Positions 19,003-60,985 are shown, counted from the stretch's first letter. The stretch: 64,000 nucleotides of DNA from a virus (IMGVR_UViG_3300011008_000003), one strand, 5' to 3'. Notes: generated by a model from the sequence alone, not told the origin. Numbers and translations: made by a program.

Positions 19003-19107
19003 GATACCATAATACCTCGAAGTAGACGGTTTGGCTTAGGCCATTCCGTCTTTTTTGTTTTAAACGTTTTTATTTACAAAACATTTGGAATTTTCTATAT
19101 TAAGAAT

Positions 19108-19446
19108 ATGAACAGATACTTACCTATTAAGATTGATACTTGCAGCCATGAGTATATGATAGACCTGTGCGGCAATACCTGGACAGACAGCGGATTGCCT
19201 GTAAGTAATATAACCAAATGGAAACTGAATGACAAACCGGTAGTGTTTCGCCTGCATATCTGCGAGTTAATGAAAGCCGGCGACAAAGATATTCGGATTT
19301 TATCGGAATATGCCTTCTGCACAGGTAAGAAGGTTACTGTAGACTTTATGGGTAAAACGTATCATCCGGGTGACAGTGACTTTGAACTGATAAAGCTGCA
19401 TGATGCATTAGAAACCGAAATTGCCCTGGCAAGACTGGAGTTATAA
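19108..19446 (+). CDS. Family A small protein (leaderless)
   Basis: TTTACA-N17-TATATT-N6-ATG; DFMGKTY...IALARLEL. Confidence 0.8.
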   Translation: MNRYLPIKIDTCSHEYMIDLCGNTWTDSGLPVSNITKWKLNDKPVVFRLHICELMKAGDKDIRILSEYAFCTGKKVTVDFMGKTYHPGDSDFELIKLHDALETEIALARLEL

Positions 19447-19724
19447 TGACAATATCAACGAAAAGCGGCATCTTTGGCGACTGGTATGACTATGAAGTAA
19501 TACTGCCGTCCAACTTTATTATCTTTAAAGACCATTTTGGTTATGAGGGATTCAATATTGCGGTGAAAGCCGATGACGGATATAACTATGCGTTACGTAT
19601 CATCCAGGCAAATCTGATGCAGGTAAAATATAAAGACCAAACTTATGACATGAGGAAACCGAAAGAATATATGACGCTGAAGAGCATCCTTGAAGCCGAT
19701 ATTGTCCTGGCAAGTCTGGACTAA
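19446..19724 (+). CDS. Family A small protein
   Basis: TAATG coupling; KYKDQTY...IVLASLD. Confidence 0.8.
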   Translation: MTISTKSGIFGDWYDYEVILPSNFIIFKDHFGYEGFNIAVKADDGYNYALRIIQANLMQVKYKDQTYDMRKPKEYMTLKSILEADIVLASLD

Positions 19725-19787
19725 AATCAAAATCAAAATTGATTTAAATTAAATTCGGTTTTTTCTATATTTGAGTTAGAGGTAATT

Positions 19788-20444
19788 ATGACTAAGATTA
19801 GACCATGTGACAAACTGACAATCACCGACATCCAGACTTCCATTAAGCAGAAGGCCGTTGCGTTCGATGCGCTTGCCGAGCTTATTAAGACTTTCCCGGC
19901 TCAAGATATGCTGACATGCAAGTTGTCACATATGGACGATCCGACAAAGGAACTTATGGCGAACTGCAAGTACCGCATTCCGTTCCATATGAGGGAATCC
20001 CAGTTTATGGAAAGCAAGGGACTCGGCATGGGTTACAGGTTACTCGACACCATTCCGGCTGCAATTGACCCGGAAAGCCACTATACCATTAACATTGAGA
20101 TCGTCTGTAAGAAAGCTGGCGGTTATTCCGTTAAGTTAAAGAATGTCTGCGACTATATCTATTCGCGAATCCGTCGTAAAGAAGGCAATACTGAATTTAA
20201 GAATTATCTTAATACGGCAACCTATGAACAGGTTGGACAGGATTCTGTTTCCGCCATTATCCACCGTGAAATAAAGGGCTGTGCCAGAAAGGCATCGGCT
20301 GTCAAGCATGCGACGAGGAACGTCGAATGGCTCAGGGCTGGTCTGGCTGAACTGATTCCTGCAATGTTGGAAGACAGTCTGTATAAGACCGAACAGGCCA
20401 TGTACAATATGTCGACCGATAAGGTCTTGGGTGTTCTGAAATAA
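19788..20444 (+). CDS. Hypothetical protein, paralogue of 20513
   Basis: YRIPFHMRESQF vs YCLPFNLNDTRF; ends VLGVLK. Confidence 0.85.
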   Translation: MTKIRPCDKLTITDIQTSIKQKAVAFDALAELIKTFPAQDMLTCKLSHMDDPTKELMANCKYRIPFHMRESQFMESKGLGMGYRLLDTIPAAIDPESHYTINIEIVCKKAGGYSVKLKNVCDYIYSRIRRKEGNTEFKNYLNTATYEQVGQDSVSAIIHREIKGCARKASAVKHATRNVEWLRAGLAELIPAMLEDSLYKTEQAMYNMSTDKVLGVLK

Positions 20445-20512
20445 AAATTAAGAATAAATCGGGCTTATATTAAGCCCGGTTTTTCTATATTGTATTAAAA
20501 CAAGAGGATATT

Positions 20513-21142
20513 ATGATAAATTCAAGTTTAACGCTCGATGAAGCATTCCGAATTCACAAGAAACAGCTGGATCACCTTGATGCGGCTCTGGCAAAGATTA
20601 AGGAATTTCCGTTAAGCCAGTATCTGCACGTAGGTTTCGACTCAGGGCTCGCCAAGGCCACCACGTTCGTCTATAACCTTGAATACTGTTTGCCGTTCAA
20701 TTTGAACGATACCAGATTCTACGGTTATTCGAAGGATTCCAAGGTCAACATCGACGTGCCGACGAGTTGGGTTAAGGATCACCTGTTCTGCAAGCATCCG
20801 GTGATAACGATGGCATTTAAGCTCACATACCGTTCCGATAAGGATCAGTGGAGCATTAAGTGTTCGCACGTCTATGCGACGACAACCTGCAAAGACAAAT
20901 ATAACGACTATTCCGTTGCCGTTAATCATGAATATTCGACGGTCGCTGAAGCAAACCGAGTGATTGGCTGGGGTGGCGACGCGAGAAATAAGAGTGCTGT
21001 GAACAGGAAATCCGACGATGTGGGTTTTTATATTAAGCTGTTCCAGATGCTGCTGCCGTTCCTGATGAATGACAATCTTATGGGTGTACGAAGCATTCTG
21101 TCCGACGCAGCGAACACCAAAGCATTAAATTCATTAAGGTAA
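20513..21142 (+). CDS. Hypothetical protein, paralogue of 19788
   Basis: Promoter + RBS; ends ALNSLR. Confidence 0.85.
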   Translation: MINSSLTLDEAFRIHKKQLDHLDAALAKIKEFPLSQYLHVGFDSGLAKATTFVYNLEYCLPFNLNDTRFYGYSKDSKVNIDVPTSWVKDHLFCKHPVITMAFKLTYRSDKDQWSIKCSHVYATTTCKDKYNDYSVAVNHEYSTVAEANRVIGWGGDARNKSAVNRKSDDVGFYIKLFQMLLPFLMNDNLMGVRSILSDAANTKALNSLR

Positions 21143-21193
21143 TAGTTTACAAGTCAAAACCGATTTTCTATATTTAAGCCAGAGGTATTTAAT

Positions 21194-21604
21194 ATGCAAA
21201 TGAAGCGACTGAAAGAATTGCACGCCGATTACCGCGGCGAGGAATGGATAGAGAACAGCATTACCGAAGAGTATAACGATGCTCTGATGTGCGTGGCGAC
21301 CGAAAAGACGGTCAATGAAGTCATGGACATTATGGAAACCCTTATCGAATTCAATAACGGGGAACGTCCGGACGAGGAAGACGACTGGATCGTGTACGAT
21401 CCGGAAAAGTTCAATAAGGTAATCAAAGACGCGAACGCTGTAGTCTTTGCTAAGAGAGATAAGGCGACCATGGAGATTCTGGACGTGCTCGAGGGTGATC
21501 CCGAGGAACCGACGGAAGAGGAAAAGGAACTGGCCGCCTTGGACGTCCTCGACGGTATTGACTCGCCGTTCTACGATCCTAATGCAAAGGACGACGATAA
21601 TTAA
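21194..21604 (+). CDS. Acidic hypothetical protein
   Basis: Promoter + AGAGGT RBS. Confidence 0.8.
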   Translation: MQMKRLKELHADYRGEEWIENSITEEYNDALMCVATEKTVNEVMDIMETLIEFNNGERPDEEDDWIVYDPEKFNKVIKDANAVVFAKRDKATMEILDVLEGDPEEPTEEEKELAALDVLDGIDSPFYDPNAKDDDN

Positions 21605-21717
21605 ATATGGCTGTTCCGATGAAAATTTGATTATGAATACTATTTACAATTCAATATCGATTTTCTATATTTAGAGCATAAACAAAACCAATCAACTTTT
21701 TCAAAGAGGTAATTCCT

Positions 21718-22728
21718 ATGGCAAACCAAATGTTCACTCCGATGTCTGATAACGAAGCAGACGCCTTCCTCGACGATCTCTTCGGCACGTCCGAAGCCGT
21801 CGAAACCGAAACCGCACCGGTTGATACCGCTGCAGAACCGACCGTTGAACCGGTTGCTGAAATGCCGACCGAAGCGGAAGCTAAGGCAACCGACGTCGAA
21901 CTTGAAGTGGTCGACGAACTTCCGGAAGTCACTAAGTCTGTGGTTGCCGGCACTCGCCACCTCAGCAAGCCGCGTGTGGTCGTCAACAAGTTCAACGGTA
22001 TTGACGGTCTGAGCGCCGCCGAGAGTAACGAATTCAACTCGTGGCTCGCCGCTCACGGTCTGTGCAAGACCATCGGTGCTTTCGCATCCACTAAGCGTAT
22101 GCGAATCTACCGTAACCTGGGTACCAAGAACGGTAAGCAGCTCCATTCTCGTGACTGCATCTACGTCGTGTCTTCGGACGACTGGCGTAAGAACAAGGAA
22201 GCCGTTTATCGTACCATCCTCCGCCTCTCCAAGAAGCAGATGGATGCGGAAATGGTTGTTAAGGTCGCCGAATACCGTCAGAAGATGAACCAAATCGAGG
22301 AAGATTTGCTTCTCCAGCACGACATCGTGATGAACTGGTACAACGGCAAGTCCGCAACCTTCAAGAAGATCCAGCACAAGATCATGGCACCCGATGTGCT
22401 CGCCATGCTTGACGAAGCTGTCAAGCATAACGACAAGTATAACGTTCAGGATATGTACCTGCAGCGTTTCCGCATGGGTGCCCAGATTGAAGAGCTCGGT
22501 ATCGCCCCTGAGTACGACTGGCGTAACTTCGACGTCATCGTTAAGGGTGGCAAGGTTGTCTGTGCTTACAGTTACCGCGACATGGTTCCGCTGTACTCCG
22601 AAACCTTTAAGACTGGTTTCTTCAACAAGTTCGGTTACAACACCGAAATCGTGGACTCCGAAACCATCGAGAAGGTCAAGGCCATGGGTGCCAAGTACAC
22701 CTGTGCCGAAGCCGAAAAGAAGGCTTAG
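21718..22728 (+). CDS. Hypothetical protein with acidic low-complexity N-terminus
   Basis: 336 aa, strongly biased codon usage, promoter, RBS, terminator. Confidence 0.88.
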   Translation: MANQMFTPMSDNEADAFLDDLFGTSEAVETETAPVDTAAEPTVEPVAEMPTEAEAKATDVELEVVDELPEVTKSVVAGTRHLSKPRVVVNKFNGIDGLSAAESNEFNSWLAAHGLCKTIGAFASTKRMRIYRNLGTKNGKQLHSRDCIYVVSSDDWRKNKEAVYRTILRLSKKQMDAEMVVKVAEYRQKMNQIEEDLLLQHDIVMNWYNGKSATFKKIQHKIMAPDVLAMLDEAVKHNDKYNVQDMYLQRFRMGAQIEELGIAPEYDWRNFDVIVKGGKVVCAYSYRDMVPLYSETFKTGFFNKFGYNTEIVDSETIEKVKAMGAKYTCAEAEKKA

Positions 22729-22877
22729 TCCGATTCGTTCAACGGGAGTCCGGCTTCGGCCGGGCTTTTCCGTTATTTTTTTCTCTATTGTTTTTATTTA
22801 CGTTTTAGCTCAGATTTTCTATATTTTAATTGAGCATGGTGCTCATTAAATAAAAGTTCAAACAAGAGGCAATTCCA

Positions 22878-24248
22878 ATGATTACATACAATCTGTCCAC
22901 CGAAGAGAAATTCGAAAAGATGCAGCAACAAATGTATCTGATTTACCCCTCGCTCGGTTCGTTCTACAACATGTGCAACAAGCGTGCACTTCCGAAAGAA
23001 TCTAAGGTGACGCTCCGACTCAACGTCTGCGAAGGTTCCGCTCCGATCATTGAGTATACCGAAGACTTCATGAAGACTCTGAGCGTCGAAACCTTTACGA
23101 TTCTGATGAGCATCGAGCTCTTCCGTTTGCTCTTGCATCATCCGACGACTCGTATGCAGATTAGCCGTTCCCTCACGGTTCAGGCTTCCAACTTCATCTG
23201 CAGTGACTCCAAAATTCGTAACTTCATCATGCCGGCACACCTTAAGGATGCTTTCCCGGACATCGCTGAAATTCAGGCTATGGAGCCCAGCTTCAACGTC
23301 AATGACGACCTTTATCTTGAAAAAGTCTACCGAATTCTTGAAAAGAATTCCCAAGACCAGAATCAGAATGGCCAGGGTCAAGGTCAAGGACAAGGCCAAG
23401 GTCAAAGCCAGGGTAACGGAGACGGTGACGGTGACGGCCAAGGTCAAGGTCAGAATGACCCGAACGGTGACAACCAAGATCAGGATGGTGACGGCGATGG
23501 TGACGGCAAGTCCGACGAACAGAAGGAAAACGACAGCCTCAAGCGTCACTTCTCTAGCCAGCAGTCTGAAAAGAACTCTGAAGGCTGGGGTGAAAACGAA
23601 CTGGTTGACGCTCAGGTTTCTGGCGAAGTCAACAAGCGTCAGTTGTCTGATTGGTCCGACGTCGGTAACGGCATGACCAAGATGATCCTGAAGGCCAACG
23701 AACTTCAGTTTGACCCCTGGTCCGTCATTAAGCGTTTCGCAACTTCCGTGTTCTCCGACTTCATCTCGTTCACTCGCATGCGTCCTAACCGCCGTCTTCC
23801 GGATTGGACTGGTGTTCTTCCGGGTAAGCGTCATGCCATGAAGGCTAAGGTACTCTTTGCGATTGACTGCAGTGGTTCCATGGCTGAGAGCGAAATCGAA
23901 CGAGCCTGCGGAGTCGTCAACTCGGCCCTCAAGCATGCTGAAACGTGGTATTGCTTCTGGGACTGCAAGTGTTCTGACTTCACTCAGAAGCGTTCCAAGA
24001 CTTCGGACTTCGACGGTCTCGGTGGTGGCGGCACCAACCCTGACTGCGTAATCAAGAAGCTCGAGGAATCCAAGGAACACTTCGACGGCCTCGTGTTCAT
24101 CACGGACTGCTACTTCGACTGGCAGCAGCCGAAAGGAAAGCACAAGATTTTCATCCTGCACACCAAGGATGCGGGTGATCCTCCGGCTTGGTGCAAGTGG
24201 CATCTGGGCATGGATGACATCGAAAAGATTCAGAAGTCTCGCTCTTAA
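22878..24248 (+). CDS. VWA-domain protein with N-terminal metallopeptidase-like domain (DUF2201-type), MoxR partner
   Basis: RPNRR, MIDAS DCSGS, GGGT, FITD; GQ/GD-repeat linker. Confidence 0.88.
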   Translation: MITYNLSTEEKFEKMQQQMYLIYPSLGSFYNMCNKRALPKESKVTLRLNVCEGSAPIIEYTEDFMKTLSVETFTILMSIELFRLLLHHPTTRMQISRSLTVQASNFICSDSKIRNFIMPAHLKDAFPDIAEIQAMEPSFNVNDDLYLEKVYRILEKNSQDQNQNGQGQGQGQGQGQSQGNGDGDGDGQGQGQNDPNGDNQDQDGDGDGDGKSDEQKENDSLKRHFSSQQSEKNSEGWGENELVDAQVSGEVNKRQLSDWSDVGNGMTKMILKANELQFDPWSVIKRFATSVFSDFISFTRMRPNRRLPDWTGVLPGKRHAMKAKVLFAIDCSGSMAESEIERACGVVNSALKHAETWYCFWDCKCSDFTQKRSKTSDFDGLGGGGTNPDCVIKKLEESKEHFDGLVFITDCYFDWQQPKGKHKIFILHTKDAGDPPAWCKWHLGMDDIEKIQKSRS

Positions 24249-24371
24249 GCGATGGCTTCCGGGCCTTTGCCTCATGAACAAAGGGTGGCCGATTAAGTTC
24301 GGCTGCCCTTCTTTAATTTTTTGACTATTAAACTTATTTACAAAGATTTTCAGATTTACTATATTAAGGAT

Positions 24372-24707
24372 ATGCTTAAAGAAAAACGTTATAAAATCGA
24401 AATTGACACAGCATCTCCGGCCGTGAGCGTGCTGAAAGACGTCCCGTATCACAGGCTGTGGGAATTCCTGCGGGCGCACCCAGAGTACAAGAAGTACGCG
24501 GATGTTAACTGCAGCCGTCCGATCTATGTGTACAAGAAGTGCAAAGTCGGAACAACAGCATTGTGGAAACTCGTAGATGCACTGACATATTCGATGAGCG
24601 GTTGCCCGACTAACATCCGCCGCGATGCCAAAGACCTTAAGCGTAATTACGGTGTCAACATAGCCACCGACATGTACAAGTATCTGAGCCTGGAAGTTCT
24701 GAAGTAA
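24372..24707 (+). CDS. Hypothetical protein (leaderless; start corrected from 24321)
   Basis: TTTACA-N17-TATATT-N6-ATG; ends SLEVLK. Confidence 0.78.
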   Translation: MLKEKRYKIEIDTASPAVSVLKDVPYHRLWEFLRAHPEYKKYADVNCSRPIYVYKKCKVGTTALWKLVDALTYSMSGCPTNIRRDAKDLKRNYGVNIATDMYKYLSLEVLK

Positions 24708-27167: not shown

Positions 27168-27229
27168 ATTAAAAATCGACTTACAAGATAAGTCGGTTTT
27201 TCTATATTTAGTAAAAACAAGAGGATATT

Positions 27230-28088: not shown

Positions 28089-28169
28089 TCCGACGATAAA
28101 TCGACTAAGAAAAAAGTTGACAAAATCTTCAGATTATTCTATATTTAAATCAAACAATGGAGGCTATAA

Positions 28170-28562
28170 ATGAAAGAATCTGATATGGAAATCGTTAAGA
28201 ACATGACGGACGCCAAGCTCATCGTCGCAATCCGTGATGCTGTTCCGGACGCCAAGGACACGATGCGTGCCCAGGACATCTGTAACAAGAAGCGTTACGC
28301 CGAAGACCGTTCGATGCTTGCCAACAAGCAGTTGAAGGCGATTACCGACACTTCGAAGTTCTACCGTCGAGCCAAGGCGTTTCTGTTAAAGGAAATCGAC
28401 ATCAAGCTCAACGACACCATCTTCTACAAGTGCAATACCATCAACGCAAAGAACTTCATCAGTTCAATGAAGCAGATGGTCAAAGCCAACCGTGAAACCA
28501 TGGAGGCTCTGGACGCGTTGAATTGCCGCGTTCAGAGGTCAAAGAATACGGTAGCAATATGA
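28170..28562 (+). CDS. Hypothetical protein
   Basis: TTGACA promoter, GGAGG RBS. Confidence 0.82.
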   Translation: MKESDMEIVKNMTDAKLIVAIRDAVPDAKDTMRAQDICNKKRYAEDRSMLANKQLKAITDTSKFYRRAKAFLLKEIDIKLNDTIFYKCNTINAKNFISSMKQMVKANRETMEALDALNCRVQRSKNTVAI

Positions 28563-30174: not shown

Positions 30175-30294
30175 TTTCTGTATTAGCCTCCTTCTTTGGG
30201 TTGAAGGGAACCGGTGGATCCGTAAGGGTCTGCCGGTTTTTTATTCTTAATTATTTTTATTTACAAGATATTCAGAATTTACTATATTATAGTC

Positions 30295-31859: not shown

Positions 31860-31960
31860 TTGATTTATACGGCTTTAAAATATAATAGGCCTATAGATTA
31901 TACTCTTTTTTAAAACAAGTCTTTAAAACACGTTTACCACAGACCGCCTCGGTCAAAAAA
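31860..31960 (+). repeat. Dispersed AT-rich intergenic repeat
   Basis: AGTCTTTAAAACACGTTTACC shared with 53480 copy. Confidence 0.65.
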
Positions 31961-32027
31961 TAGTCAAAAATAATAGTTTACAACCTTGTCGAATTTTTCT
32001 ATATTATCAGATGTAAGAGAGGTAATT

Positions 32028-33428: not shown

Positions 33429-33944
33429 ATGTCTCAAGAAAAGAAAGTCAAAGAATACAAGTACCTTAAGGCTCTTCCCCTCACCGAAGGCCAGCAAAGG
33501 GTAATCATCGCGAAGTCGAACAAGCTCCGTAAGCTCCGCAAGAAGGTGCATCTTGAAAAGAAGGCTGCACAGATCGTATGGGACAATATCTGCGACCACG
33601 GCAGCATCAGCCTTACGAACATCGAAGCCGTCAAGGACCTGCTCGACAATTACAAGCAGTCTCTTGAAATCCTTCAGGAATTGAAGGCAGAAATCTACTC
33701 CATCCGCAACGAAATCAAGCAAATCGTCGTGGAAGCGAAGAAGAATGCACCGGCGAAGGCACCTGAACCCGAACCGGCCAAGGAAGCACCTGCACCTCAG
33801 CCGAAGCAGGAACAGAAGATGGTGAAGTTCATTTTCACTGTGCCGGAAGCAATTTCCCTGCAGACGCATCTCGATACGTTCCTCAAGAACCGACCGAATG
33901 CGACAAAGGTCACGCTTGAACTGGCCGTTGACCACATGCACTAG
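33429..33944 (+). CDS. Hypothetical protein with Pro/Ala linker
   Basis: Promoter, AGAGG RBS, terminator. Confidence 0.82.
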   Translation: MSQEKKVKEYKYLKALPLTEGQQRVIIAKSNKLRKLRKKVHLEKKAAQIVWDNICDHGSISLTNIEAVKDLLDNYKQSLEILQELKAEIYSIRNEIKQIVVEAKKNAPAKAPEPEPAKEAPAPQPKQEQKMVKFIFTVPEAISLQTHLDTFLKNRPNATKVTLELAVDHMH

Positions 33945-34061
33945 AATTTAACCTCTAGTTGTAGGCGGGCGATCCTTCGGGGTCGTCCGTTCTTTTTTAT
34001 TCTAAATTTGGTATTTACAAAATTCCCAGAATATTCTATCTTTATATCAAGAGGTTAAAAC

Positions 34062-36890: not shown

Positions 36891-36977
36891 GATTCACCGA
36901 TAAAAAAGATTAAAGACTAGAAGTTTACAACTTCTGGTCTTTTTTCTATATTTAGAATATAAACAAGAGGTTATAAA

Positions 36978-41594: not shown

Positions 41595-41795
41595 ATGGAA
41601 ATGGAGCCGGAAGAATTCAAGGACTTTATGGCCGCACAGACCGAGGCCATCGAGATCGCCAAGTGGTTGCTTGGCGAAAAGCTCGGTCGTGATCCTGGTC
41701 CTGAATTCGTTCTAAAGTGGATAAAAGAAAACGCTGAAGAGTTTCGAAAGAACTGGCCCATTTACTATAAGGAATGGAAAGAACGACACAAGTAA
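41595..41795 (+). CDS. Small hypothetical protein behind late-type promoter
   Basis: TATAAATA-N4-ATG; KWLLGEKLGRDPG. Confidence 0.78.
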   Translation: MEMEPEEFKDFMAAQTEAIEIAKWLLGEKLGRDPGPEFVLKWIKENAEEFRKNWPIYYKEWKERHK

Positions 41796-41922
41796 CGGGT
41801 TTGACCTCTTGGGGGAAAGCTGGGAATAAATTCCTGGCTTTTTCTCTTTACAAAACTTTTGAATATTTCTATATTTACTATGTAATCGATAATAACGTCG
41901 ATTATTTAAAAAGAGGTTATCC

Positions 41923-42936: not shown

Positions 42937-43017
42937 CACCGAGGAAAAAACTTCAAAAACAATCGTTTACAAACCTTTCGAAAATTCCTATATTATGGAT
43001 ATAATCAAGAGGTTAAT

Positions 43018-43629
43018 ATGATAAAGTACGAAACTCGAATCGGCCCGTCGCTTCTCATTGCATTCGCCCTTGTGCTCATATTCGGGGCACACCTGGCTTT
43101 CGCAGAGAAGGTGGATCGTCACTGGGAGGCTGCTCCTTACGTAGACTTTACGGGTACGGTCCACGGCGGATTCGGGAAACATTACGACGGGCTCTCGGCT
43201 GGGATGGGTGTTGGGGCCGAAGCCTTGCTCGTAATGTCAGACCGTTTCGCAGTCGGTGCAAATGCGAAGACTGTCGCGGTCTATGATGTCTATACCACGT
43301 TCGATAACGAAACAATCGTTGACGAATACGGGGTATGGTTCGCCTCGCTGGGACCTATCGTCTACATCGGCGATATGTTCTACGTGACGGCGATGATTCA
43401 ATACAACCTCGACGTGTTCTATGAAAATACCTACAGGCACGAGGGAACGAATGACGAGGACATTGACAAACTCGATTATTCGATAGACGATATTGATTGG
43501 TGGTTCGAAACCGGATTCAGGGTTGATTACCATGCATCGATTTACCTGGCTGCGAATACCCACCTAATCGAGACAGCAGTGAATAATGCACGATACCACC
43601 TATATTGCGGATTAAAATTCTTTTTCTAA
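43018..43629 (+). CDS. Putative outer-membrane beta-barrel protein
   Basis: Signal peptide ending AFA, alternating amphipathic strands, C-terminal LYCGLKFFF. Confidence 0.7.
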   Translation: MIKYETRIGPSLLIAFALVLIFGAHLAFAEKVDRHWEAAPYVDFTGTVHGGFGKHYDGLSAGMGVGAEALLVMSDRFAVGANAKTVAVYDVYTTFDNETIVDEYGVWFASLGPIVYIGDMFYVTAMIQYNLDVFYENTYRHEGTNDEDIDKLDYSIDDIDWWFETGFRVDYHASIYLAANTHLIETAVNNARYHLYCGLKFFF

Positions 43630-43724
43630 AACGACTTTGACCTCTAAGAACGACTCGCGGACCGGACCTCCTGCGGGTCGTTTCTTTATATTATATCCAC
43701 ATGTTTTATACTATTCCATTCGTC

Positions 43725-43830
43725 CATAATTGAGTTGTGGTCTTGTTTTTATATTAAAGAGTATAGTTAATAGTCTTTTTAAAATAAGTCTTTAAAATGA
43801 GTTTTGCACGGCATGCATCGGTCAAAAAAT
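43725..43830 (+). repeat. Dispersed AT-rich intergenic repeat
   Basis: TGAGTTGTGG...TAGTCTTTTTAAAATAAGTCTTTAAAA. Confidence 0.65.
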
Positions 43831-43899
43831 ATTCAAATGTTTTTATTTACAAGAAGTTCAAATGTTTCTATATTTAGAACATAAACAAGAGGTTAACAA

Positions 43900-44052
43900 A
43901 TGTCTGACTTAGAACGACATATCAAAGAAAATTGGTCGCAAATGAGTCCTAGCGAAAGAATGTTCGCCATGATGGATTTAAGTGAAGAAAACGGTGTTAA
44001 ACCGATTACTATTGATGAATGGAAAGAATGGATGATACAACCAAAGGGTTAA
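43900..44052 (+). CDS. 50-aa hypothetical protein
   Basis: Promoter + CAAGAGGTT RBS; not in ORF track. Confidence 0.7.
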   Translation: MSDLERHIKENWSQMSPSERMFAMMDLSEENGVKPITIDEWKEWMIQPKG

Positions 44053-45644: not shown

Positions 45645-45971
45645 ATGAAGCTTGTCAAGATTTACCACCAGAACTTCCACGACATGGATCAATGGTATAA
45701 TTACCAGTTGCTCACCGACGAACAGGCCGAACATTACCGTGGCACTCTGCTTACATACCCGAGCGACCTGAAGATCACTTACTATGACGACGACAACCAG
45801 CCGACCGATGAAGTCACTGTGACCGATTGCGTCAACATGCTCGAGAATGCTCGAGAAGTAACCGAAGAAGAAGCAGCGACACTAGAAAAACTCGTGCCCG
45901 AAGTAATCAAGAAGGTTAATCCGGATAACGACATCGCCTGTTACATTGAACAATTCAATGATATGGTTTAA
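45645..45971 (+). CDS. Hypothetical protein
   Basis: Promoter + AAGAGGTCC RBS. Confidence 0.8.
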   Translation: MKLVKIYHQNFHDMDQWYNYQLLTDEQAEHYRGTLLTYPSDLKITYYDDDNQPTDEVTVTDCVNMLENAREVTEEEAATLEKLVPEVIKKVNPDNDIACYIEQFNDMV

Positions 45972-46114
45972 CTGTTAACCTCCGGCGGCGGATCTGTCCG
46001 CTTAGGCTCTTCCGCCGCTTTTTCTTTTAAGTTTGTTGTTTACGATTTAATTTGAATTTTCTATATTTGATAAAGCTCGAATGTCTCGAGTATAAATCAA
46101 TAAAGAGGTCTGAT

Positions 46115-46630
46115 ATGGCTAACACTTCCGGAATCAACGAAACTATCAACTGTCCGAACGGCTTTTACTTCGGCGATCCTTGCTACGCCCTCAAGGAAGA
46201 CTTGTATCAGGAATGGATTAACTGGGGTGACGAACGAGAAAAGAAGGAAGGTCGTTGGTGTAACGACGGCAAGTTTGTCCACGACGGGAAAGAAATTATG
46301 TTGGTTGATTCGACTGCATACGGTGACGGTTGTTATGGTGGCAATCATGCTTCGTATGGTGTCGATGCGGGCTGTCTCGCTGTGATTCCTCTCGAATTCT
46401 GCGACGAATCGAAAAACTTCCGTGACGATATGGGATGGGTCTGTGAAGAACCTCATGAAGTCAAGCTCGTAACGGACGATACGGGTACGTTTAGGGTTTA
46501 CGTCGACGACGATAACATCATGGTTGGTGAGGAAATCGTCGAGACGGGTGACGAAGGAGAGGAAGAAGAGGAAGACAATTCCTGTTGGGATGATTCCTTG
46601 GATGATACTCCTGAATTCGAAGAAGAATAA
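46115..46630 (+). CDS. Conserved hypothetical protein (GDPCY / YGDGxY / VDAG motifs, DUF4241-like), acidic tail
   Basis: Motifs visible; start corrected. Confidence 0.75.
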   Translation: MANTSGINETINCPNGFYFGDPCYALKEDLYQEWINWGDEREKKEGRWCNDGKFVHDGKEIMLVDSTAYGDGCYGGNHASYGVDAGCLAVIPLEFCDESKNFRDDMGWVCEEPHEVKLVTDDTGTFRVYVDDDNIMVGEEIVETGDEGEEEEEDNSCWDDSLDDTPEFEEE

Positions 46631-46757
46631 AGTTTGACCTCTAAAGAGCGGGTCGTCCTAAGGCGAGGGCGATTCCGCTGCTTTTTTCTTAATTGTTTTT
46701 ATTTACATAAATATTGGATTTTTCTATATTTAGGTTAGAAACAATAAGAGGTAAAAC

Positions 46758-48000: not shown

Positions 48001-48086
48001 CTCTTCCGTTGAAAAAACTCGATTTGAACTAGTTTACAAGACTAGTTCATTTTTCTATATTTTTGTCAAACAAACAAGAGGTTAAT

Positions 48087-49659: not shown

Positions 49660-49747
49660 ATCCGTTGAAAAAACTCGAATTGAACTAGTTTAAAAGACTA
49701 GTTCATTTTTCTATATTATAATCAAACAAAACAACAAGAGGTTAATA

Positions 49748-50110: not shown

Positions 50111-50186
50111 TACCGGTCAAAAATTCAAACACGAACTAGTTTAAAAGACTAGTTCTTTTTTCTATATTTTAATTAGAGGTTAGAAT

Positions 50187-50954: not shown

Positions 50955-51050
50955 GTTCATAAATGAGTTATGAACGAGTTTTTTATTTCATGAGTATAAA
51001 CACTAGTCTTTAAAAATCATGACTTTAAATGAGATTTATCACAGTCTGCT
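50955..51050 (+). repeat. Dispersed AT-rich intergenic repeat
   Basis: ATAAATGAGTT...ACTAGTCTTTAAAAA. Confidence 0.65.
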
Positions 51051-51695: not shown

Positions 51696-51702
51696 GCATT
51701 AT

Positions 51703-53017: not shown

Positions 53018-53077
53018 TTCTTGTTTACAAGTCTTTATGATTTTTCTATATTTTGAATATCAACAAGAGGTTTTAAT

Positions 53078-53383
53078 ATGTCTCGTTCTTACAAGAAGAA
53101 TTACAAGTCGCCTGTCTGCTGCACCGGTCGTAACGGTATCAAGAAGTGGAAGCATGATACGAAGCAACAGCGCAGGGCTCGCGAACATGCCCAGTTGTTC
53201 AAGATTTACGAAGATGAAGAAGGTTTTGACGAAGAATCCTGTACGCCCATCAAGTACCAGAAGCAGAAGGACATGACCGACTGGTCCGGTCCTCATGACG
53301 GATGGAACCGTATGAGCGTTCGTGCCGCGGAAGAGATGTGGGACGAAATCGACGGCAAGTCGTACAAGGGACATCGCAAGTAG
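53078..53383 (+). CDS. Hypothetical protein with basic MSRSYKK N-terminus
   Basis: Promoter + RBS + terminator. Confidence 0.8.
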   Translation: MSRSYKKNYKSPVCCTGRNGIKKWKHDTKQQRRAREHAQLFKIYEDEEGFDEESCTPIKYQKQKDMTDWSGPHDGWNRMSVRAAEEMWDEIDGKSYKGHRK

Positions 53384-53479
53384 AGTTTGACCTCTAAACG
53401 ACAAGGGCTTGCGGCAACTGGACCTCGCCGTGGGCCCTTTTTTATATCCAAACCCAATTCAAAATCCAACTTTTTTGAC

Positions 53480-53580
53480 TTATAAATGAGTTGTGGACTT
53501 GAATTTTATAATATGAATATAAATACTAGTCTTTAAAAACGAGTCTTTAAAACACGTTTACCGCGGATTGCCTCGTTCAA
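53480..53580 (+). repeat. Dispersed AT-rich intergenic repeat
   Basis: ATAAATGAGTTGTGGACTTG...CTAGTCTTTAAAAACGAGTCTTTAAAACACGTTTACC. Confidence 0.68.
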
Positions 53581-53650
53581 TAAACTTTAGAATTTATTTG
53601 TTTACAAATCTCTATGGTTTTTCTATATTTGAAACAAACAAGAGGTTAAT

Positions 53651-54305: not shown

Positions 54306-54461
54306 GGGTTTTGCGCACGGGATTAAACATTAACACCAATGCACCCCTTACACCTCCCGATGCGCAAGAAATTTGACCTCTACCGACCCAATTCGCTCAT
54401 TACTGGACCTCTTGACCGGGTTGGGTCGGTTCTTTGGATTTTTAACCAAAAGGAAAGAAAC

Positions 54462-54755
54462 ATGAAGAAAATCCTATTTGTCCTTATCGCGTTTGCTACG
54501 TTGTTTGCCTTTACCGGCTGTAACTCGTGCACGCAAACCTTCAAAAACCTCGAATCCGATTTCTCGGAACTTGACCGTAACATCACGGTCATAAACGCGA
54601 TTCGAGGAGACACGCTCTTCACGTATTCCGGGCCGTGTTACATCAGTGACGGAGCGAATCCCGGGGACGTGACTCTCATCTACAAGGTGGGAAAGAAATC
54701 GAAGAAAGCAGACTTTCTCGGCGAACACGTCATATTCATCGCGACAGAAAAGTAA
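54462..54755 (+). CDS. Lipoprotein (start corrected)
   Basis: MKKILFVLIAFATLFAFTG-C lipobox. Confidence 0.8.
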   Translation: MKKILFVLIAFATLFAFTGCNSCTQTFKNLESDFSELDRNITVINAIRGDTLFTYSGPCYISDGANPGDVTLIYKVGKKSKKADFLGEHVIFIATEK

Positions 54756-56189: not shown

Positions 56190-56196
56190 ATAGTAC

Positions 56197-56652: not shown

Positions 56653-57003
56653 CTATTTCAGGAAGTCGGCATGCTTCTTGAATTCTTCAACAAGCTGTTC
56701 GTCACTATAGTACGGAACAAGTTCTTCTTTACGCCCGCCCAAGTAGTAATCGTCGTAGTGTACGAACAGGATTCGGCAGTTGTCGACGATTCGTGCATAG
56801 CACTTATCAAACTGTAACGTTACAGACCAGTGTCTACCCCACTTCTCGATGTCAGCCATGTCCAGGAATACGAGCGGTTTCATCTCGTTGATTTCAGGAA
56901 TGGCGATGACAACTTCGCCCTTGTGTTTCAAACGATCCATCTCTGCCTGAAGTGAAAGAATCGTGTTTTCCATGGAATGACAGTCAAGTTTAATTTCGTT
57001 CAT
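56653..57003 (-). CDS. Hypothetical protein
   Basis: Promoter + CAAGAGGTTATT-ATG. Confidence 0.8.
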   Translation of the reverse strand: MNEIKLDCHSMENTILSLQAEMDRLKHKGEVVIAIPEINEMKPLVFLDMADIEKWGRHWSVTLQFDKCYARIVDNCRILFVHYDDYYLGGRKEELVPYYSDEQLVEEFKKHADFLK

Positions 57004-57066
57004 AATAACCTCTTGATTAAAATATAGAAATTTCCAAGAGATTTGTAAATACGAAAGTTTTAGAAT

Positions 57067-57303
57067 TTATTTTTGGTAAGACTCGTACTTCTCGATGTTC
57101 TTGCACGATTTTTCGAACAGTTGAATATCCTTCATGTCATATCTTGCAACGACATCGAGTCTGTCCGCAAGGCGTTGAATCTTACGTCTCGGGTATTTCT
57201 CTTCGAACATCTCGTTGTAGTTACGAATATATCTCTTACGGAGCTTACGGTATACGATCGTGCCCGTGATGCTCAATACAATCCAAGCGATAATCCATCC
57301 CAT
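57067..57303 (-). CDS. Small membrane-anchored protein
   Basis: N-terminal TM. Confidence 0.72.
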   Translation of the reverse strand: MGWIIAWIVLSITGTIVYRKLRKRYIRNYNEMFEEKYPRRKIQRLADRLDVVARYDMKDIQLFEKSCKNIEKYESYQK

Positions 57304-57306
57304 GGC

Positions 57307-57501
57307 CTACCCCACGAGATTGCCGATAGAACCGACAATCCACGTCGCACCGTGAGCGATGTTAGATACGATTCCCGTTGCCAGAGCCACGATAGAATTG
57401 ACCGAACCACAGAAGGAATTGGTCACGTGACTGTTTGTCGTAAATGCGCCGATAAGGAACAGCACCAGGACGACGATGAGGATTACTTTGAATTTTGTCA
57501 T
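57307..57501 (-). CDS. Small membrane protein
   Basis: Promoter + GGAGG RBS; hydrophobic. Confidence 0.72.
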   Translation of the reverse strand: MTKFKVILIVVLVLFLIGAFTTNSHVTNSFCGSVNSIVALATGIVSNIAHGATWIVGSIGNLVG

Positions 57502-57602
57502 ATCTGACCTCCGTTGTTTAATTTAAATATAGAAAATTCTGAAGAATTCGTAATTTAAACAATTAAAAGAAAATGGTTGGAGGTCTTGCGACCCCCGGAT
57601 CA

Positions 57603-57866
57603 TCACTTGTAGATTTCAACGGTTTTACGGTCGATGATCGTGTCCGTTCCCAAACCTTCGACAATGAACCGTTGTTCGATTTGTTCGATGATGTCCTCGG
57701 CGTGTTCTTTCGTATCGGTTTCGATAACGATTACATTTCCGAGTTTCGGTCGTTTGACCGTTTCGTACGGACACATTTGACTGAGGACGTAATCCACCAA
57801 ATTGTTCATTTGGGAGTTTCTACGGATGTCGTAGTCGATGGAAACCAGTGCGAGAAATTTTTTCAT
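57603..57866 (-). CDS. Hypothetical protein (start corrected)
   Basis: Promoter + AAGAGGTC RBS. Confidence 0.75.
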   Translation of the reverse strand: MKKFLALVSIDYDIRRNSQMNNLVDYVLSQMCPYETVKRPKLGNVIVIETDTKEHAEDIIEQIEQRFIVEGLGTDTIIDRKTVEIYK

Positions 57867-57939
57867 TTTAGACCTCTTTTGTTTATTATAATATAGAAAA
57901 TTCCAAAGAATTTGTAAATAAGGAAAAATCCAGTTTTTA

Positions 57940-58092
57940 TTACTGGATTCCCGTGATTTTGATGAATTTGATTTGTTTACGAGCACACGGAACGCAGAGA
58001 ATCAAGTTGGCGAACAGCCAAACCCTGGAGTTGTTGTATTTGATGGTGTTGGTCTTGCACTGCGGGCAACGGTAAGCCTTAGAGATTTTCAT
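57940..58092 (-). CDS. 50-aa zinc-ribbon protein (CPQC...CVPC)
   Basis: Promoter + AAGGA RBS; not in ORF track. Confidence 0.62.
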   Translation of the reverse strand: MKISKAYRCPQCKTNTIKYNNSRVWLFANLILCVPCARKQIKFIKITGIQ

Positions 58093-58230
58093 TCGGATTT
58101 CCTTAGTTAAATTAAACGACGATTAAGTTCGATTTAAATATAGAAAATTCTGAATATTTTGTAAAGACTATTAAATATAAAAAAATAACCGGAAGTCTTT
58201 CAACTCCCGGTTTTCATTAAGTAATAAGAA

Positions 58231-58710
58231 TTAACACCACGGAGATTCGAACTTGGTGTTGTTGTTGATGTTCTTGAAGATACCCTCACGGAACTTGAAA
58301 CAGTGGTCGAAGTATTCGTCCGGGAACATTCCGGAAGGCCAGTTAGTCGGATCTTCGTCGTGATACGGTTCGTCTTCCAAAGTGATTACGTTGACAATCT
58401 CGTTGACAACCTGGAATACGTCGGTGGTCGTGTAGTCAACCTGGTCCCAAGTCGTAGTTTCACCGTCGTCGGTCTGTTCACTGTGTCTCTTGATGGAGTA
58501 TTCGTATTTCTTCTTGGAATCGTCGATACCGATTTCGAGATAACCCTCGGGACAGGACGGTTCGTCCTGACAATAAGTATGGACGATGATTTTCTTACTG
58601 TCGACCTTGACATCGACCGACGGGAATCCCCTGGCGATGAAGACGAGATTACCGAAGTCGTTGTTGATACGACCGATGATGTCAAAGACGTTGATGGTGT
58701 TCTTTTTCAT
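58231..58710 (-). CDS. Hypothetical protein (start corrected)
   Basis: AGAGGTCCAAAT-ATG. Confidence 0.8.
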   Translation of the reverse strand: MKKNTINVFDIIGRINNDFGNLVFIARGFPSVDVKVDSKKIIVHTYCQDEPSCPEGYLEIGIDDSKKKYEYSIKRHSEQTDDGETTTWDQVDYTTTDVFQVVNEIVNVITLEDEPYHDEDPTNWPSGMFPDEYFDHCFKFREGIFKNINNNTKFESPWC

Positions 58711-58968
58711 ATTTGGACCTCTATTAAGAAAGATTTCGGAAATCATTAAGTTATAAAGTTTAAATAACTCTGATTTCTATTTAAATATAGAAAATTCTGA
58801 TAATTTAGTAAACCATTATATTATATAATTATTTGTCGGAGTATCTATCATATCGGAATTGCCGCTTGCGCTAGTACATGGTGCTGGTATTCCGATGAAA
58901 AAATATCAAATGTTTTAGTTTACAACTGCTTCGGTTTTTTCTATATTTAAGTCAACAAGAGGTCTGAT

Positions 58969-59325
58969 ATGAATAAAATTTACTGGAACACTGACACGGA
59001 CGTGCTCGTAGACATCAACAACGTAATCGACAAGAGCAAGATTCCGGACAATTGCGACATTTATCTTAACTTCGGGATTACAGTTGTCGACTGTTGCAAA
59101 TCTCATAGCGTGATTCCAGATTTGATTGACGTGGAAGATACGGAAATAATCAAATGTCTGTACAAGAGAGACGAAGAGGCTGAAGAATATAACGGCGAAG
59201 TCAATATGTCTTCGATTGTCATCGACATGAACGGTAACGAGATTCATAAGGATGTTCAGGCTGTAATGTACGCCGCGACGGCTACGGGAAGAATGTTAAG
59301 CAAGATGAATTCCGAAGAAAAATAA
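58969..59325 (+). CDS. Hypothetical protein
   Basis: Promoter + RBS. Confidence 0.8.
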   Translation: MNKIYWNTDTDVLVDINNVIDKSKIPDNCDIYLNFGITVVDCCKSHSVIPDLIDVEDTEIIKCLYKRDEEAEEYNGEVNMSSIVIDMNGNEIHKDVQAVMYAATATGRMLSKMNSEEK

Positions 59326-59436
59326 TCAAATATTTTAGTTTACAACTTTGTCTAGATTTTCTATATTTTAATCGTTGCAAGTCATAATCGAATGATTAAC
59401 GACTGCAGCGAATCCGATAACAACAAGAGGTCCAAA

Positions 59437-59754
59437 ATGAAAATGACGAACGAAGAACTTCAGAACTACGCAAACCAGATTGAAGAAGCCGGTTTGAAGC
59501 GCGATACCAATCCGGACGTGGCCGGCCTGCATCATTACGTAGTCCAGACGACTTACAAGAAAGCCGACGAAGACGCCGTTCTTGACGGCATGCCGGAAGC
59601 ATTCGAGGCTTGCTTCGATAACGAAAACGGCACGACCGGCGAATGCGAAGACGTCAGCATGTTCTACCTGGAAGACTGTTCGGTCACGGACGCAGCGACT
59701 ATCGTCAGCTGGCTCAAGGCCAACAAGAACTGGAAAACGTACATTGCTGACTAA
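59437..59754 (+). CDS. Hypothetical protein (start corrected)
   Basis: Promoter, leader hairpin, AAGAGGTCC RBS. Confidence 0.8.
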   Translation: MKMTNEELQNYANQIEEAGLKRDTNPDVAGLHHYVVQTTYKKADEDAVLDGMPEAFEACFDNENGTTGECEDVSMFYLEDCSVTDAATIVSWLKANKNWKTYIAD

Positions 59755-59918
59755 TCCAAGTTGAAGAAATCCGGAATGTCGTGAGATATACCGATGATTT
59801 TTTTAATAATGTTTTAGTTTACAACTTAATTAGAATTTTCTATATTTAAATCGTTGCAAGTTATAATTGAATGATTATTCAACTTGCTGCAATTCCAAAC
59901 TAAACCAAAGAGGTCCAA

Positions 59919-60200
59919 ATGATCAAGAGCTTTACCTACACGAACATGAAATCCGAAACTTCCACCAGAATCGTCAACATCGTGCACGAATCCGAAAGCA
60001 TGATTCAGGGTTTCGATTACAAGTACCTGAACTCTGATGAACAAGCGCTGGTCAACGGTGTCTACGGGAACGACCACAAGCCCACGCCGTTTCCGACCGT
60101 CCGTGTGAAGATGACTGACGAAGACTACAAGCAGCTCGGAATCAGCAAGGAACTGTTCAAGAAGGCATTCCGTACCTTCAAGAAGTCTTCCATGAAGTAA
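59919..60200 (+). CDS. Hypothetical protein
   Basis: Promoter, leader hairpin, RBS. Confidence 0.8.
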   Translation: MIKSFTYTNMKSETSTRIVNIVHESESMIQGFDYKYLNSDEQALVNGVYGNDHKPTPFPTVRVKMTDEDYKQLGISKELFKKAFRTFKKSSMK

Positions 60201-60467
60201 GGGACTTCTGTCCTACCTGCGGGGTTCGGTGACCTTCGGGAGATCCGAATCTTTCAGTCGGGCCAATCTGGGTTGCAGGCCAGTCCGACGACAGTCCCAA
60301 GACGGACCGGGAGTACCCTAGGGGAAACCGGTTCTTTATTGCTTTTCCGATAGATTTTTTTATAATGTTTATATTTACGACTTTGATTAGATTTTCTATA
60401 TTTTAGTTGTGCGAGTGATAATTGATTGATTAGTCACTCGCGGAAATTCCAAATCAAAGAGGTCCAA

Positions 60468-60815
60468 ATGGTTACTTTCAAGTCTATCAACGAAATCCAG
60501 TCTGCAATTCGTGCCAAGATCACGAGCAATTCCGAAGCAGCTATCAAGGCGATGATGAAAATCTACGCGAACCAGACGGAAGATGAACAGGATGCCGAAG
60601 CCACAAGGCACCGTAACAATGTCGGTTTCAACGGCACGGACGCCGAAATTCTGAGCAGCTTCTCGAAGCAGTACCAGAAGCGTGGCTTCCTGAGCCCGAA
60701 GCAGAACGCCATCCTGATGAAGAAAATCGGGAAGTATGCAGGTCAGCTGACCAAGCAGGCGATCGCCAACAAGATGTACGTGAAGACCGGCGACGTCTGG
60801 ATCGTCAACAAATAG
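60468..60815 (+). CDS. Conserved phage hypothetical protein (QTxDEQ...NxVGF...D...LSxKQ...KYxxQL)
   Basis: Motif; promoter, leader hairpin, RBS; start corrected. Confidence 0.82.
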   Translation: MVTFKSINEIQSAIRAKITSNSEAAIKAMMKIYANQTEDEQDAEATRHRNNVGFNGTDAEILSSFSKQYQKRGFLSPKQNAILMKKIGKYAGQLTKQAIANKMYVKTGDVWIVNK

Positions 60816-60985
60816 GTTTCTGGACCTCCTGCGGGTCGCTCCGGTATCGGGGCGATTCCGCTTATTTTTTTATATTTTATCTTGTTTACAAGTTTATTAT
60901 AATTTTTTATATTTTAATTGAACAAGTGATAATTAAATAATTATTTACTTGCTGAAACTCCAAACAAAATCAAAGAGGTCCAATT

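Follow-up and report, generated by a model that had tools for sequence, protein, structure and literature searches.

Here we describe a motif complementary to the phage ribosome binding site (RBS) that recurs between the stop codons and the intrinsic terminators of early genes in a giant uncultured T4-like rumen phage, within a stretch of 64,000 nt that we call the window. Judging from complementarity and modelled folding, we are inclined, if only somewhat, to regard this motif as a cis-acting anti-RBS element that operates at the RNA level to close completed mRNAs and that is embedded in cassettes resembling the promoter-early stem-loop (PeSL) modules of T4-type phages. Because the motif mirrors an RBS of its own transcript, a completed mRNA would probably fold back and close off the site where its translation begins. 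Control of this kind is known for single genes, whereas here the putative control is repeated at about one third of the early-gene terminators.

Position of the motif in early transcripts

The preliminary description had placed the motif at about 12 positions, and all 12 coordinates carry the sequence given there on the plus strand. Eleven of the 12 motifs fall in 3'UTRs of plus-strand genes, the exception being 54373, where the gene model is ambiguous and the nearest genes are leaderless or have a weak Shine-Dalgarno (SD) sequence. The primary copy sits 1-7 nt past the stop codon and 2-10 nt ahead of the intrinsic terminator, in 3'UTRs of 40-65 nt, and a second copy occurs within a terminator loop of 10-13 nt at 43664, 53420 and 54404. 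The 9-mer TTGACCTCT has exactly five plus-strand copies (41801, 43637, 46634, 53387 and 54373), and its sole minus-strand match falls within a coding region. These consensus sites, all on the plus strand, are found after gene 41595-41795 (motif 41800-41809, terminator 41811-41838), after gene 43018-43629 (motif 43636-43645, followed by a hairpin at 43646-43686 with a second core copy, 43665-43670, in its 10-nt loop), after gene 46115-46630 (motif 46633-46642, terminator 46643-46684), after gene 53078-53383 (motif 53386-53395, terminator 53403-53439 with a second copy, 53421-53426, in its 11-nt loop) and at 54372-54381, upstream of terminator 54382-54430 (second copy 54404-54412). A plus-strand variant with A (33947-33956) follows gene 33429-33944 and precedes terminator 33964-33991. 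Three further sites came to light beyond the original list, at 24267-24273, at 30184-30191 and, weakly, near 15983. A search of Rfam 15 returned no family above gathering score for the motif element, the only matches being cow-rumen-2 and two tRNAs.

The proximity to terminators emphasized in the preliminary description has a clear statistical counterpart. In the first 40 nt past plus-strand stop codons the sense sequence ACCTC occurs 8 times against 1.2 in shuffles (approximately 6-fold; P = 0.0002), and an annotation-free scan detected CCTC in the stop-to-hairpin spacer of 9 of 27 3'UTR terminators against 1.45 expected (P < 0.0005), with no enrichment of GAGG in the same spacers. The enrichment was seen again in eight related loci, and the first 50 kb of T4, examined for such elements, yielded none. 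The observation that the motifs first checked do not precede a minus-strand start can be extended to all sites, none of which is followed by a plausible one. The single long minus-strand open reading frame (33951) shadows a plus-strand gene of strong coding character.

Coding sequences avoid the same core. Compared with synonymous shuffles, CCTC is the fourth most depleted of the 256 4-mers in the phage coding sequences (z = -5.3) and CCTCC ranks eighth of 1024, while GAGG is not depleted in this comparison. Pairing with the RBS accounts for the depletion of CCTC, so that no protein is needed to explain it, which weighs against a protein-binding site as considered below.

Complementarity to ribosome binding sites of the same transcription unit

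The RBS consensus within the window is AAGAGGT(T/C)AA. That the motif is its reverse complement, as had been noted from the start, is borne out, and the complementarity does not stop at the 16S-like core but takes in a further 4 nt of the phage-specific RBS flank. In the relatives L002 and L005 the base 3' of GAGGT is mostly C, so that there the motif is the exact complement of the RBS.

The most informative sites are those departing from the consensus, all on the plus strand. The variant at 19010-19019, in the 3'UTR of gene 18133-19002 and followed by terminator 19024-19056, is a 10-nt perfect complement of the RBS of that very gene (18120-18129), which is its unique best match among 72 RBSs. 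At 24267-24273, in the 3'UTR of gene 22878-24248, G replaces A before CCTC, and the motif complements the rare GAGGC-type RBS of the same gene (core 22866-22872) as a unique 7-nt best match. The 8-mer at 30184-30191, between a tRNA-Leu and terminator 30205-30242, perfectly complements the unique RBS (28159-28166) of gene 28170-28562, a gene of that transcription unit with the strongest consensus promoter in front of it. The variant at 45973-45982, after gene 45645-45971, is a 10-nt perfect complement of the RBS (43889-43898) of gene 43900-44052, the first gene of its unit, being the unique best of 72 and first in duplex energy. The motif at 60821-60828, after gene 60468-60815 and before terminator 60831-60861, is an 8-nt perfect complement of the RBS of that gene (60459-60466). 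The unique best perfect match among the 72 RBSs thus falls in the own unit for terminators 19024, 24281, 30205 and 45984, and for terminator 60831 it is tied among 7 RBSs, that of its own gene being one. The own-RBS matches proposed previously for 19010 and 60821 are therefore exact.

Ranking the RBSs by duplex energy favoured those of the own unit, the units being drawn up from promoter and terminator predictions (permutation P = 0.0002 across all 13 terminators whose spacer contains CCTC; P = 0.0016 with the previously listed sites only; P = 0.98 in a negative control made up of terminators lacking CCTC). The motif is constant at the five consensus sites irrespective of the RBS flank of the last gene, whose RBS takes ordinary ranks (46, 28 and 47 of 89). 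A gene-by-gene match to the RBS of the last gene fails at the consensus sites. Judged by complementarity, motifs are better assigned to the transcription unit, in many cases to its first gene, than to the last gene; for 41800-41809 the best partner within the unit is the first gene, 39147. The own-unit test gave no significance (P = 0.42) in the relatives L001, L002 and L005, whose motifs nearly all follow the consensus, and the significance in the window therefore rests on about five variant sites. By this comparison of sequences, complementarity is specific to the SD region of the own transcript, and it is the five variant sites that drive this specificity.

Predicted folding of completed transcripts

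Whole-transcript folds by partition function (388-1491 nt), which leave out ribosomes and folding kinetics and take predicted transcript ends, paired the motif with the SD of its own gene at P ≥ 0.89 in 6 of 8 cases. The pairing probability is 1.0 for the 19010 motif in a 947-nt transcript, 0.99 for 24267, 1.0 for 43636 (SD at 43009-43013), 0.99 for 46633 (46105-46109), 0.89 for 53386 (53067-53071) and 0.99 for 60821. The loop copies have no predicted pairing in cis in these folds (P = 0), and their loops have unpaired probabilities of 0.79 in the 43646-43686 terminator and 0.97 in that at 53403-53439. In folds of terminated 3' fragments the motif is single-stranded.

Of the fold-back reading advanced in the preliminary description, the structural half, namely pairing of the 3' element with the RBS once the transcript is complete, is thus supported by complementarity, modelled folds, conservation and the avoidance in coding sequence. 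The functional half is a matter of analogy: translation shut-off and pulse expression may follow, as icaR, hok and the Bacillus subtilis anti-SD reporters would suggest.

Proposed mechanism and comparison with known systems

We propose that in an early mRNA the motif would be the final single-stranded segment to be made, between stop codon and terminator hairpin, and that on completion it would pair over 7-10 nt with the SD region of a gene on its own transcript, often the 5'-most or sole gene, closing the mRNA as a 5'-3' panhandle. Duplex and ribosomes would compete for the RBS; ribosomes would load during transcription, and the finished mRNA would be less translated and decay faster. As the motif starts 1-7 nt past the stop codon, a ribosome that terminates there would occlude it and briefly reopen the RBS. 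If this is true, expression of each cassette would track promoter activity closely and end fast.

The nearest known case is icaR of Staphylococcus aureus, in which an anti-SD motif in the 3'UTR pairs with that mRNA's 5'UTR, blocking the initiation complex and yielding a substrate for RNase III (PMC3868564). The phage element likewise is an anti-SD motif complementary to the SD region of its own transcript, located between stop codon and intrinsic terminator at predicted transcript ends, the icaR motif being pyrimidine-rich. However, the icaR case concerns one gene, which has a long 3'UTR and a measured effect, whereas the phage element, known from sequence, abuts stop codon and terminator in its short 3'UTRs and recurs at about one third of the early-region terminators with a shared consensus and some loop copies. 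In B. subtilis, anti-RBS 8-mers inserted hundreds of nucleotides downstream, a 3'UTR position among the sites used, base-pair with the RBS in vivo, where they accelerate decay and block translation (Gill et al. 2025 preprint, PMC12697547). Anti-SD-like sequences are depleted in native coding regions there as in the phage, but those 8-mers are synthetic insertions and the natural pattern is avoidance, whereas the phage positively keeps the sequence at a set 3' position (PMC12697547).

Fold-back inhibition in type I toxin mRNAs of the hok type (Thisted et al. 1995, as related in PMC3868564) offers a weaker parallel. As far as that account goes, hok pairs with an upstream activator element whereas the phage motif pairs with the SD itself. 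Moreover, most of the phage gene products, at 66-456 amino acids (one has 39), are no small membrane toxins; the phage sites show no sign of an antisense RNA or of 3' processing; and no consensus minus-strand promoter was found there among the top-scoring matches of the promoter scan. An interaction between the 5' and 3' ends can also stabilise a message, as in hbs mRNA (PMC5737220).

Alternative explanations

The motif might instead insulate against read-through, acting only on transcripts that pass the terminator and masking the RBS of the next gene, which would then be translated solely from its own promoter. The principle is that of T4 e, soc, 49 and I-TevI, for which McPheeters in 1986, Macdonald in 1984, Barth in 1988 and Gott in 1988 are said to have described RBS occlusion on long transcripts: an upstream complementary segment reportedly masks the RBS, and transcripts from a proximal promoter, which are without that segment, are translated. 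In T4, however, the masking arm lies near the RBS and the proximal promoter is late, whereas in the phage the better-supported partner is the upstream RBS of the own unit. For 7 of 9 sites, folds from stop codon to next start do predict a duplex of motif and downstream SD (P ≥ 0.9) that encloses terminator and promoter. At 33947, where the own RBS fits poorly, the downstream RBS (34050-34059) is a perfect 10-nt complement, the motif being invariant across L132-L137 and the downstream complement conserved as well; at 60821 the downstream and own RBSs fit equally well. Yet 3 of 11 motif terminators (19024, 24281 and 30205) precede leaderless genes with no SD, and these are the ones whose variant motif fits an upstream RBS. 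Downstream RBSs rank no better than chance (Fisher P = 0.18), many terminators without the motif precede SD-led genes, and since the terminators are strong, read-through transcripts should be a minority. We give insulation a small chance.

A similarly small chance may be granted to action in trans, in which stable 3' fragments made of seed and terminator would titrate consensus early RBSs and bring about a global shut-off, as an RNA counterpart of T4 RegA and RegB. The architecture is that of 3'UTR-derived small RNAs, with an accessible, conserved, single-stranded seed adjoining the terminator; the second copy is displayed in unusually large loops of 10-13 nt; and the invariant consensus motif fits most early RBSs, its G pairing with U or C at the variable RBS position. 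But trans action has no need of variant motifs fitted to their own unit, neither a processing site nor an internal promoter was identified from which such fragments could arise, and the flanks of the loop copies show no conservation outside GACCTC.

A broader scheme, which we hold to be rather improbable, would combine phage-wide closed loops gated by translation with such release in trans. Stop and start codons would lie at one end of the SD:anti-SD helix, which every terminating ribosome would open, leaving the RBS free for the following round of initiation, and an mRNA no longer translated would snap shut permanently; double-motif terminators would additionally free loop-displayed anti-RBS RNAs that stop early translation in trans. 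If true, closed loops and loop RNAs would form an RNA-only substitute for early shut-off of the RegA/RegB type.

The preliminary description had offered a protein-binding antitermination or stability site as its alternative. On such a reading, a phage or host RNA-binding protein would recognise the motif once or twice per terminator and thereby modulate termination, 3' processing or stability. Consensus sites of diverged relatives keep the 9-mer without any change, the paired copies before the stem and in the loop would suit a dimer, and the 3'UTRs of 18133 and 33429 are as a whole more conserved than the proteins. The reading sits badly with the variant sites, since these have just CCTC in common with the consensus and yet are conserved and fit an RBS of their own unit; moreover, the extension of the motif mirrors the RBS flank and no candidate protein was identified. 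We regard such a site as quite improbable.

Cassette organization and conservation in related phages

Returning to the cis anti-RBS element, its surroundings are those of PeSL cassettes (PMC2839356, PMC4122927): a stem-loop is followed by a sigma70-like early promoter and then by an SD with its start codon, and the whole recurs between small genes in a plastic region. The phage promoter TTTAC[A/G]-N17-TATATT is near the TTTACW-N17-TAYWAT of T4, and relatives may, as in PeSL-bearing phages, differ by cassette indels. The published account of PeSLs, which were read as recombination and regulatory modules rather than as devices for 5'-3' pairing, mentions no anti-RBS upstream of the stem-loop (PMC2839356, PMC4122927). 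Retention of the motif as a functionless by-product of cassettes homogenised by recombination is very improbable indeed: although promoter-RBS modules are repeated at least 20 times, several terminators have common sequence, intergenic regions are conserved above genes, and L001 is without the 46115-46630 cassette, with its junction between motif and terminator, the motif accompanies unrelated hairpins and stays fixed while adjacent stems vary, homogenisation would not yield unit-specific variants complementing an RBS 0.4-2 kb upstream, and the published PeSL description has no such element (PMC4122927).

Related rumen-phage contigs retain the 9-mer TTTGACCTC and the loop copy GACCTC while the terminator stems differ; in the 43646-43686 stem, pairing is kept by two compensatory pairs and both motifs are invariant (5 orthologues). 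The 19010 motif persists in orthologues down to 46% protein identity, and the matched pairs of 19010 and 24267 are kept down to 46-57%, the 24267 motif being present in L006 and L009. The 30184-30191 motif is conserved in L133-L136. In L001 the relation between the 45973-type motif and the RBS of gene 43900 is shared, the 54372 motif and a 53403-type terminator with its loop copy are retained, and at the missing cassette the 45973-type motif is joined to a 46643-type terminator, the one clear case of this kind. L005 has an additional small gene ahead of the 43636 motif.

An anti-RBS element between stop codons and terminators

The window belongs to a very large, uncultured phage and encodes a GroEL, a Rad50-like ATPase and two tRNAs. 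The codon-usage gene model placed small genes in a near-continuous array on the plus strand (~11.2-51.3 kb), with more plus-strand blocks up to 62 kb. Nearly every gene has a promoter of its own, TTTAC[A/G]-N17-TATATT; in most genes the ATG is preceded, at a distance of 5-6 nt, by a highly uniform ribosome binding site (RBS), AAGAGGT(T/C)AA, and the remaining genes are leaderless, with the ATG ~6 nt past the -10 box (roughly a dozen genes show such a leaderless start behind TATATT). An intrinsic terminator follows some genes only. The arrangement matches the succession of stem-loop, early promoter, Shine-Dalgarno (SD) sequence and start codon that defines the PeSL architecture of T4-type phages (PMC4122927).

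The motif with core ACCTC or CCTC that lies between stop codon and terminator hairpin proved genuine, an anti-RBS element that is conserved and specific in both strand and position. The preliminary description had listed 12 sites, and the sequence stated for each was present at all 12; additional sites were identified at 24267-24273 and 30184-30191, together with a weak one near 15983. Exactly five plus-strand copies of the 9-mer occur in the window (41801, 43637, 46634, 53387 and 54373), starting 1-7 nt past the stop codon and ending 2-10 nt 5' of a GC-rich hairpin with a U-tract, and three 3'UTRs hold the core once more, within a terminator loop of 10-13 nt. Enrichment at 3' ends was confirmed, as the 40 nt that follow plus-strand stops contain sense ACCTC 8 times, compared to 1.2 in shuffles (p = 0.0002). 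The annotation-free scan placed CCTC between stop and hairpin in 9 of 27 3'UTR terminators (1.45 expected) and showed no enrichment of GAGG in the spacers of these 27. On the minus strand of the window CCTC was present in one of eight terminators, which is not significant. The claim that the motif is not a minus-strand RBS was upheld at every site, the complement being followed by no usable start codon or ORF with the sole exception of a shadow ORF at 33951, and the minus-strand reading was hence ruled out. We also rejected the idea that a unit carries as many motif copies as SD-led genes, which by eye fits three double sites and fails at 33947, 41800 and 45973.

Predicted pairing of the motif with an RBS of its own transcription unit

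The motif proved to be, as proposed, the complement of the phage RBS, and the match extends past the stretch expected to be recognised by 16S rRNA. Its T-rich 5' extension mirrors the A-rich flank 3' of GAGGT, and the G preceding ACCTC can pair with U or C, the single variable RBS position; in two related metagenome loci, L002 and L005, this position is mostly C and the consensus motif is therefore an exact complement.

Each terminator spacer was searched against all 72 plus-strand SD-type RBSs. Four terminators showed a unique best perfect match inside their own unit, as delimited by predicted promoters and terminators: the one at 19024 with gene 18133 (10 nt), that at 24281 with gene 22878 (7 nt), that at 30205 with gene 28170 (8 nt), and that at 45984 with gene 43900, the first in the unit and 2 kb upstream (10 nt). 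For the terminator at 60831 the best match, of 8 nt, was tied among seven RBSs, the gene's own included. Units were permuted as blocks of consecutive genes, with duplex energy used to rank the best RBS within each unit; this yielded p = 0.0002 for all 13 terminators whose spacer contains CCTC, p = 0.0016 for the sites of the preliminary description only, and p = 0.98 for the negative control, formed by terminators without CCTC. The same test was not significant (p = 0.42) in the relatives L001, L002 and L005, which carry almost only consensus motifs. That non-consensus motifs fit the non-consensus RBSs of their own transcription unit is the decisive evidence.

A narrower claim, that the motif folds back on the RBS of the gene just ended, stood in part: the match to the last gene's own RBS was found at 19010, 24267 and 60821 and moderately at 46633 and 43636, whereas elsewhere it was not, the ranks being ordinary, and fine tuning to the last gene's RBS is absent at the five consensus sites. 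At 33947 the motif fits the downstream RBS better than that of its own gene, and at 54372 the adjoining genes are leaderless or have weak SDs. When eight predicted complete transcripts (388-1491 nt) were folded with a partition function, six paired the motif with the gene's own SD (P of at least 0.89); cis pairing was not predicted for the loop copies. Judging from complementarity and predicted folds, once an early mRNA is complete, the anti-RBS element most likely closes it onto an RBS that the transcript itself carries.

We rank below this cis model the possibility that the motif masks the SD of the next gene on transcripts passing the terminator. Folds of such read-through transcripts pair the motif with the next gene's SD at seven of nine sites, but the downstream RBS was not matched specifically (p = 0.18), and three motif terminators precede leaderless genes. 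The 3' fragments with two motifs may, in addition, play a role in trans.

Two sites present further structure. At 54339-54470 the terminator holding both copies (54382-54430) precedes the likely start at 54462, yet sits within a longer open frame (54339-54755), and might be an attenuator. The variant motif at 24267 lies, by eye, in the loop of a small hairpin (window 24262-24310) whose 3' arm shares sequence with the terminator's 5' arm, which makes alternative structures possible.

Conservation of the element in related phages

Relatives were found through homologues of genes 43018-43629, 18133-19002 and 33429-33944 in rumen and gut metagenome contigs (46-98% protein identity). At 19010 the variant motif shows almost no change down to 46% protein identity, and the same is true of its partner RBS and of the hairpin; the motif-RBS pairs at 24267 and 33947 are also preserved. 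The motif appears matched to the RBS of its own transcript, and it is conserved across related rumen phages. A sequence-specific protein site, to which the motif could otherwise be attributed, fits the variant sites poorly.

At the 43636 site the 9-mer and the loop core are invariant in five orthologues, and pairing in the terminator stem is preserved, by changes on one side and by two compensatory pairs. Hitch-hiking of the motif in recombining cassettes does not explain such a fixed motif beside drifting stems, nor does it explain the unit-specific complementarity. Enrichment of CCTC 5' of terminators was seen again in eight related loci, which are orthologous and thus not independent replicates. 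Other candidate readings were discarded: a lambda nut-like boxA plus boxB (by eye, boxA resemblance at 7 of 10 positions, not kept at variant sites), a -35 or MotA-like box (by eye, no -10 element at the correct distance), a three-frame stop module (by eye, trailing TAA not conserved in relatives), and loop copies as complements of the GAGGTCCA RBS class (flanks not conserved in orthologues).

Two relatives differ in gene content around the element. In L001 (5780-5860, compared to window 45973-46690) the entire 46115-46630 cassette is absent and a 45973-type motif is fused to a 46643-type terminator, which places the indel junction between motif and hairpin, as expected for excision of a PeSL-type cassette. 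In L005 (10623-10830) an extra 54-codon gene follows the orthologue of 43018-43629 and precedes the motif with its terminator, indicating that the motif is tied to the end of the transcription unit and not to one gene.

The protein scan of IMG/VR found no relatives, the two-copy motif pattern gave at least 119 matches there, all by chance and without terminator or promoter context, and no Rfam family covers the motif sites. The same terminator scan of the first 50 kb of T4 gave six 3'UTR terminators, and CCTC was absent from all six spacers. Bacteroides phage SJC03, whose GroEL is the closest (55% identity), has no Shine-Dalgarno sequences before its genes and no motif copy in 21.7 kb (145151-166827), and is therefore unsuitable as a model for the motif. 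Because the window's phage uses strong SDs and SJC03 none, the host of the former is probably not a member of the Bacteroidota despite the GroEL affinity.

Avoidance of the motif in genes and relation to known systems

Compared to synonymous-codon shuffles, only three of the 256 4-mers are more depleted in coding sequence than CCTC (z = -5.3), CCTCC ranks 8 of 1024 among depleted 5-mers, and GAGG shows no depletion. Being depleted within genes and enriched at 3' ends, CCTC is avoided inside by the phage and concentrated about five-fold at one 3' place. The depletion may be taken as an independent sign that RBS pairing matters in this phage. GGAG is also strongly depleted (z = -5.2) and is avoided by the uniform RBS AAGAGGT too, a pattern that would be expected if a GGAG-specific RegB-like endoribonuclease acts during infection. 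Of all 4-mers GATC is the most depleted (z = -8.3), suggesting that restriction or Dam sites are avoided.

A handful of single bacterial genes are known in which the 3' end of the mRNA pairs with the 5' end. Closest in mechanism are icaR (PMC3868564), the fold-back inhibition of hok as cited in that paper, and synthetic distal anti-SD elements (PMC12697547). The latter preprint (Gill et al. 2025) reported the same kind of avoidance for bacteria and argued that anti-SD-like sequences are generally counter-selected as they silence mRNAs from afar; its experiments tied the avoidance to long-range RBS pairing, faster decay and lower translation, one 3'UTR position included (PMC12697547). Here an anti-SD-like sequence is deliberately retained, at a fixed place at the ends of many early transcripts. 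The motif does not belong to the hok family: most of its genes have ordinary sizes, and there is no evident antisense partner. Closest in architecture are PeSL cassettes, whose published definition does not include an anti-RBS element. A limited literature search found no description of anti-RBS motifs before phage terminators, an absence that is not proof. What is new is the modular use of anti-RBS control, the kind of control itself being already known. Working as proposed, the element would be a compact, portable module of ~10 nt between stop codon and terminator that would link protein output to ongoing transcription, and would bear on early-gene timing in large phages without dedicated proteins, on expression control carried by PeSL-type cassettes themselves and on design rules for synthetic terminators.

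Other features of the early region

Another class of terminators has a hairpin loop that contains the -35 hexamer of the promoter that follows (15988-16013, 17051-17079, 27171-27201, 36912-36942, 48025-48049, 49681-49705 and 50133-50155). None of these seven has the consensus anti-RBS motif, and that at 15988 has just the weak variant ATCCTC near 15983. A T4-late-type TATAAATA box lies 3-4 nt 5' of the ATG at 41595, 50350, 51695 (minus strand) and 56197, in genes embedded in the early region. Finally, a conserved intergenic element of ~100-150 nt occurs 3' of the double-motif terminators and in two other places (window 43726-43874, 53482-53629, 50959-51016 and 31907-32005). Two tandem boxes of the form AGTCTTTAAAA are present, some copies have a TATAAATA-like box as well, and L001, L002 and L005 preserve the start of the element. 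It could be a promoter module, middle or late, or a region bound by a regulator.
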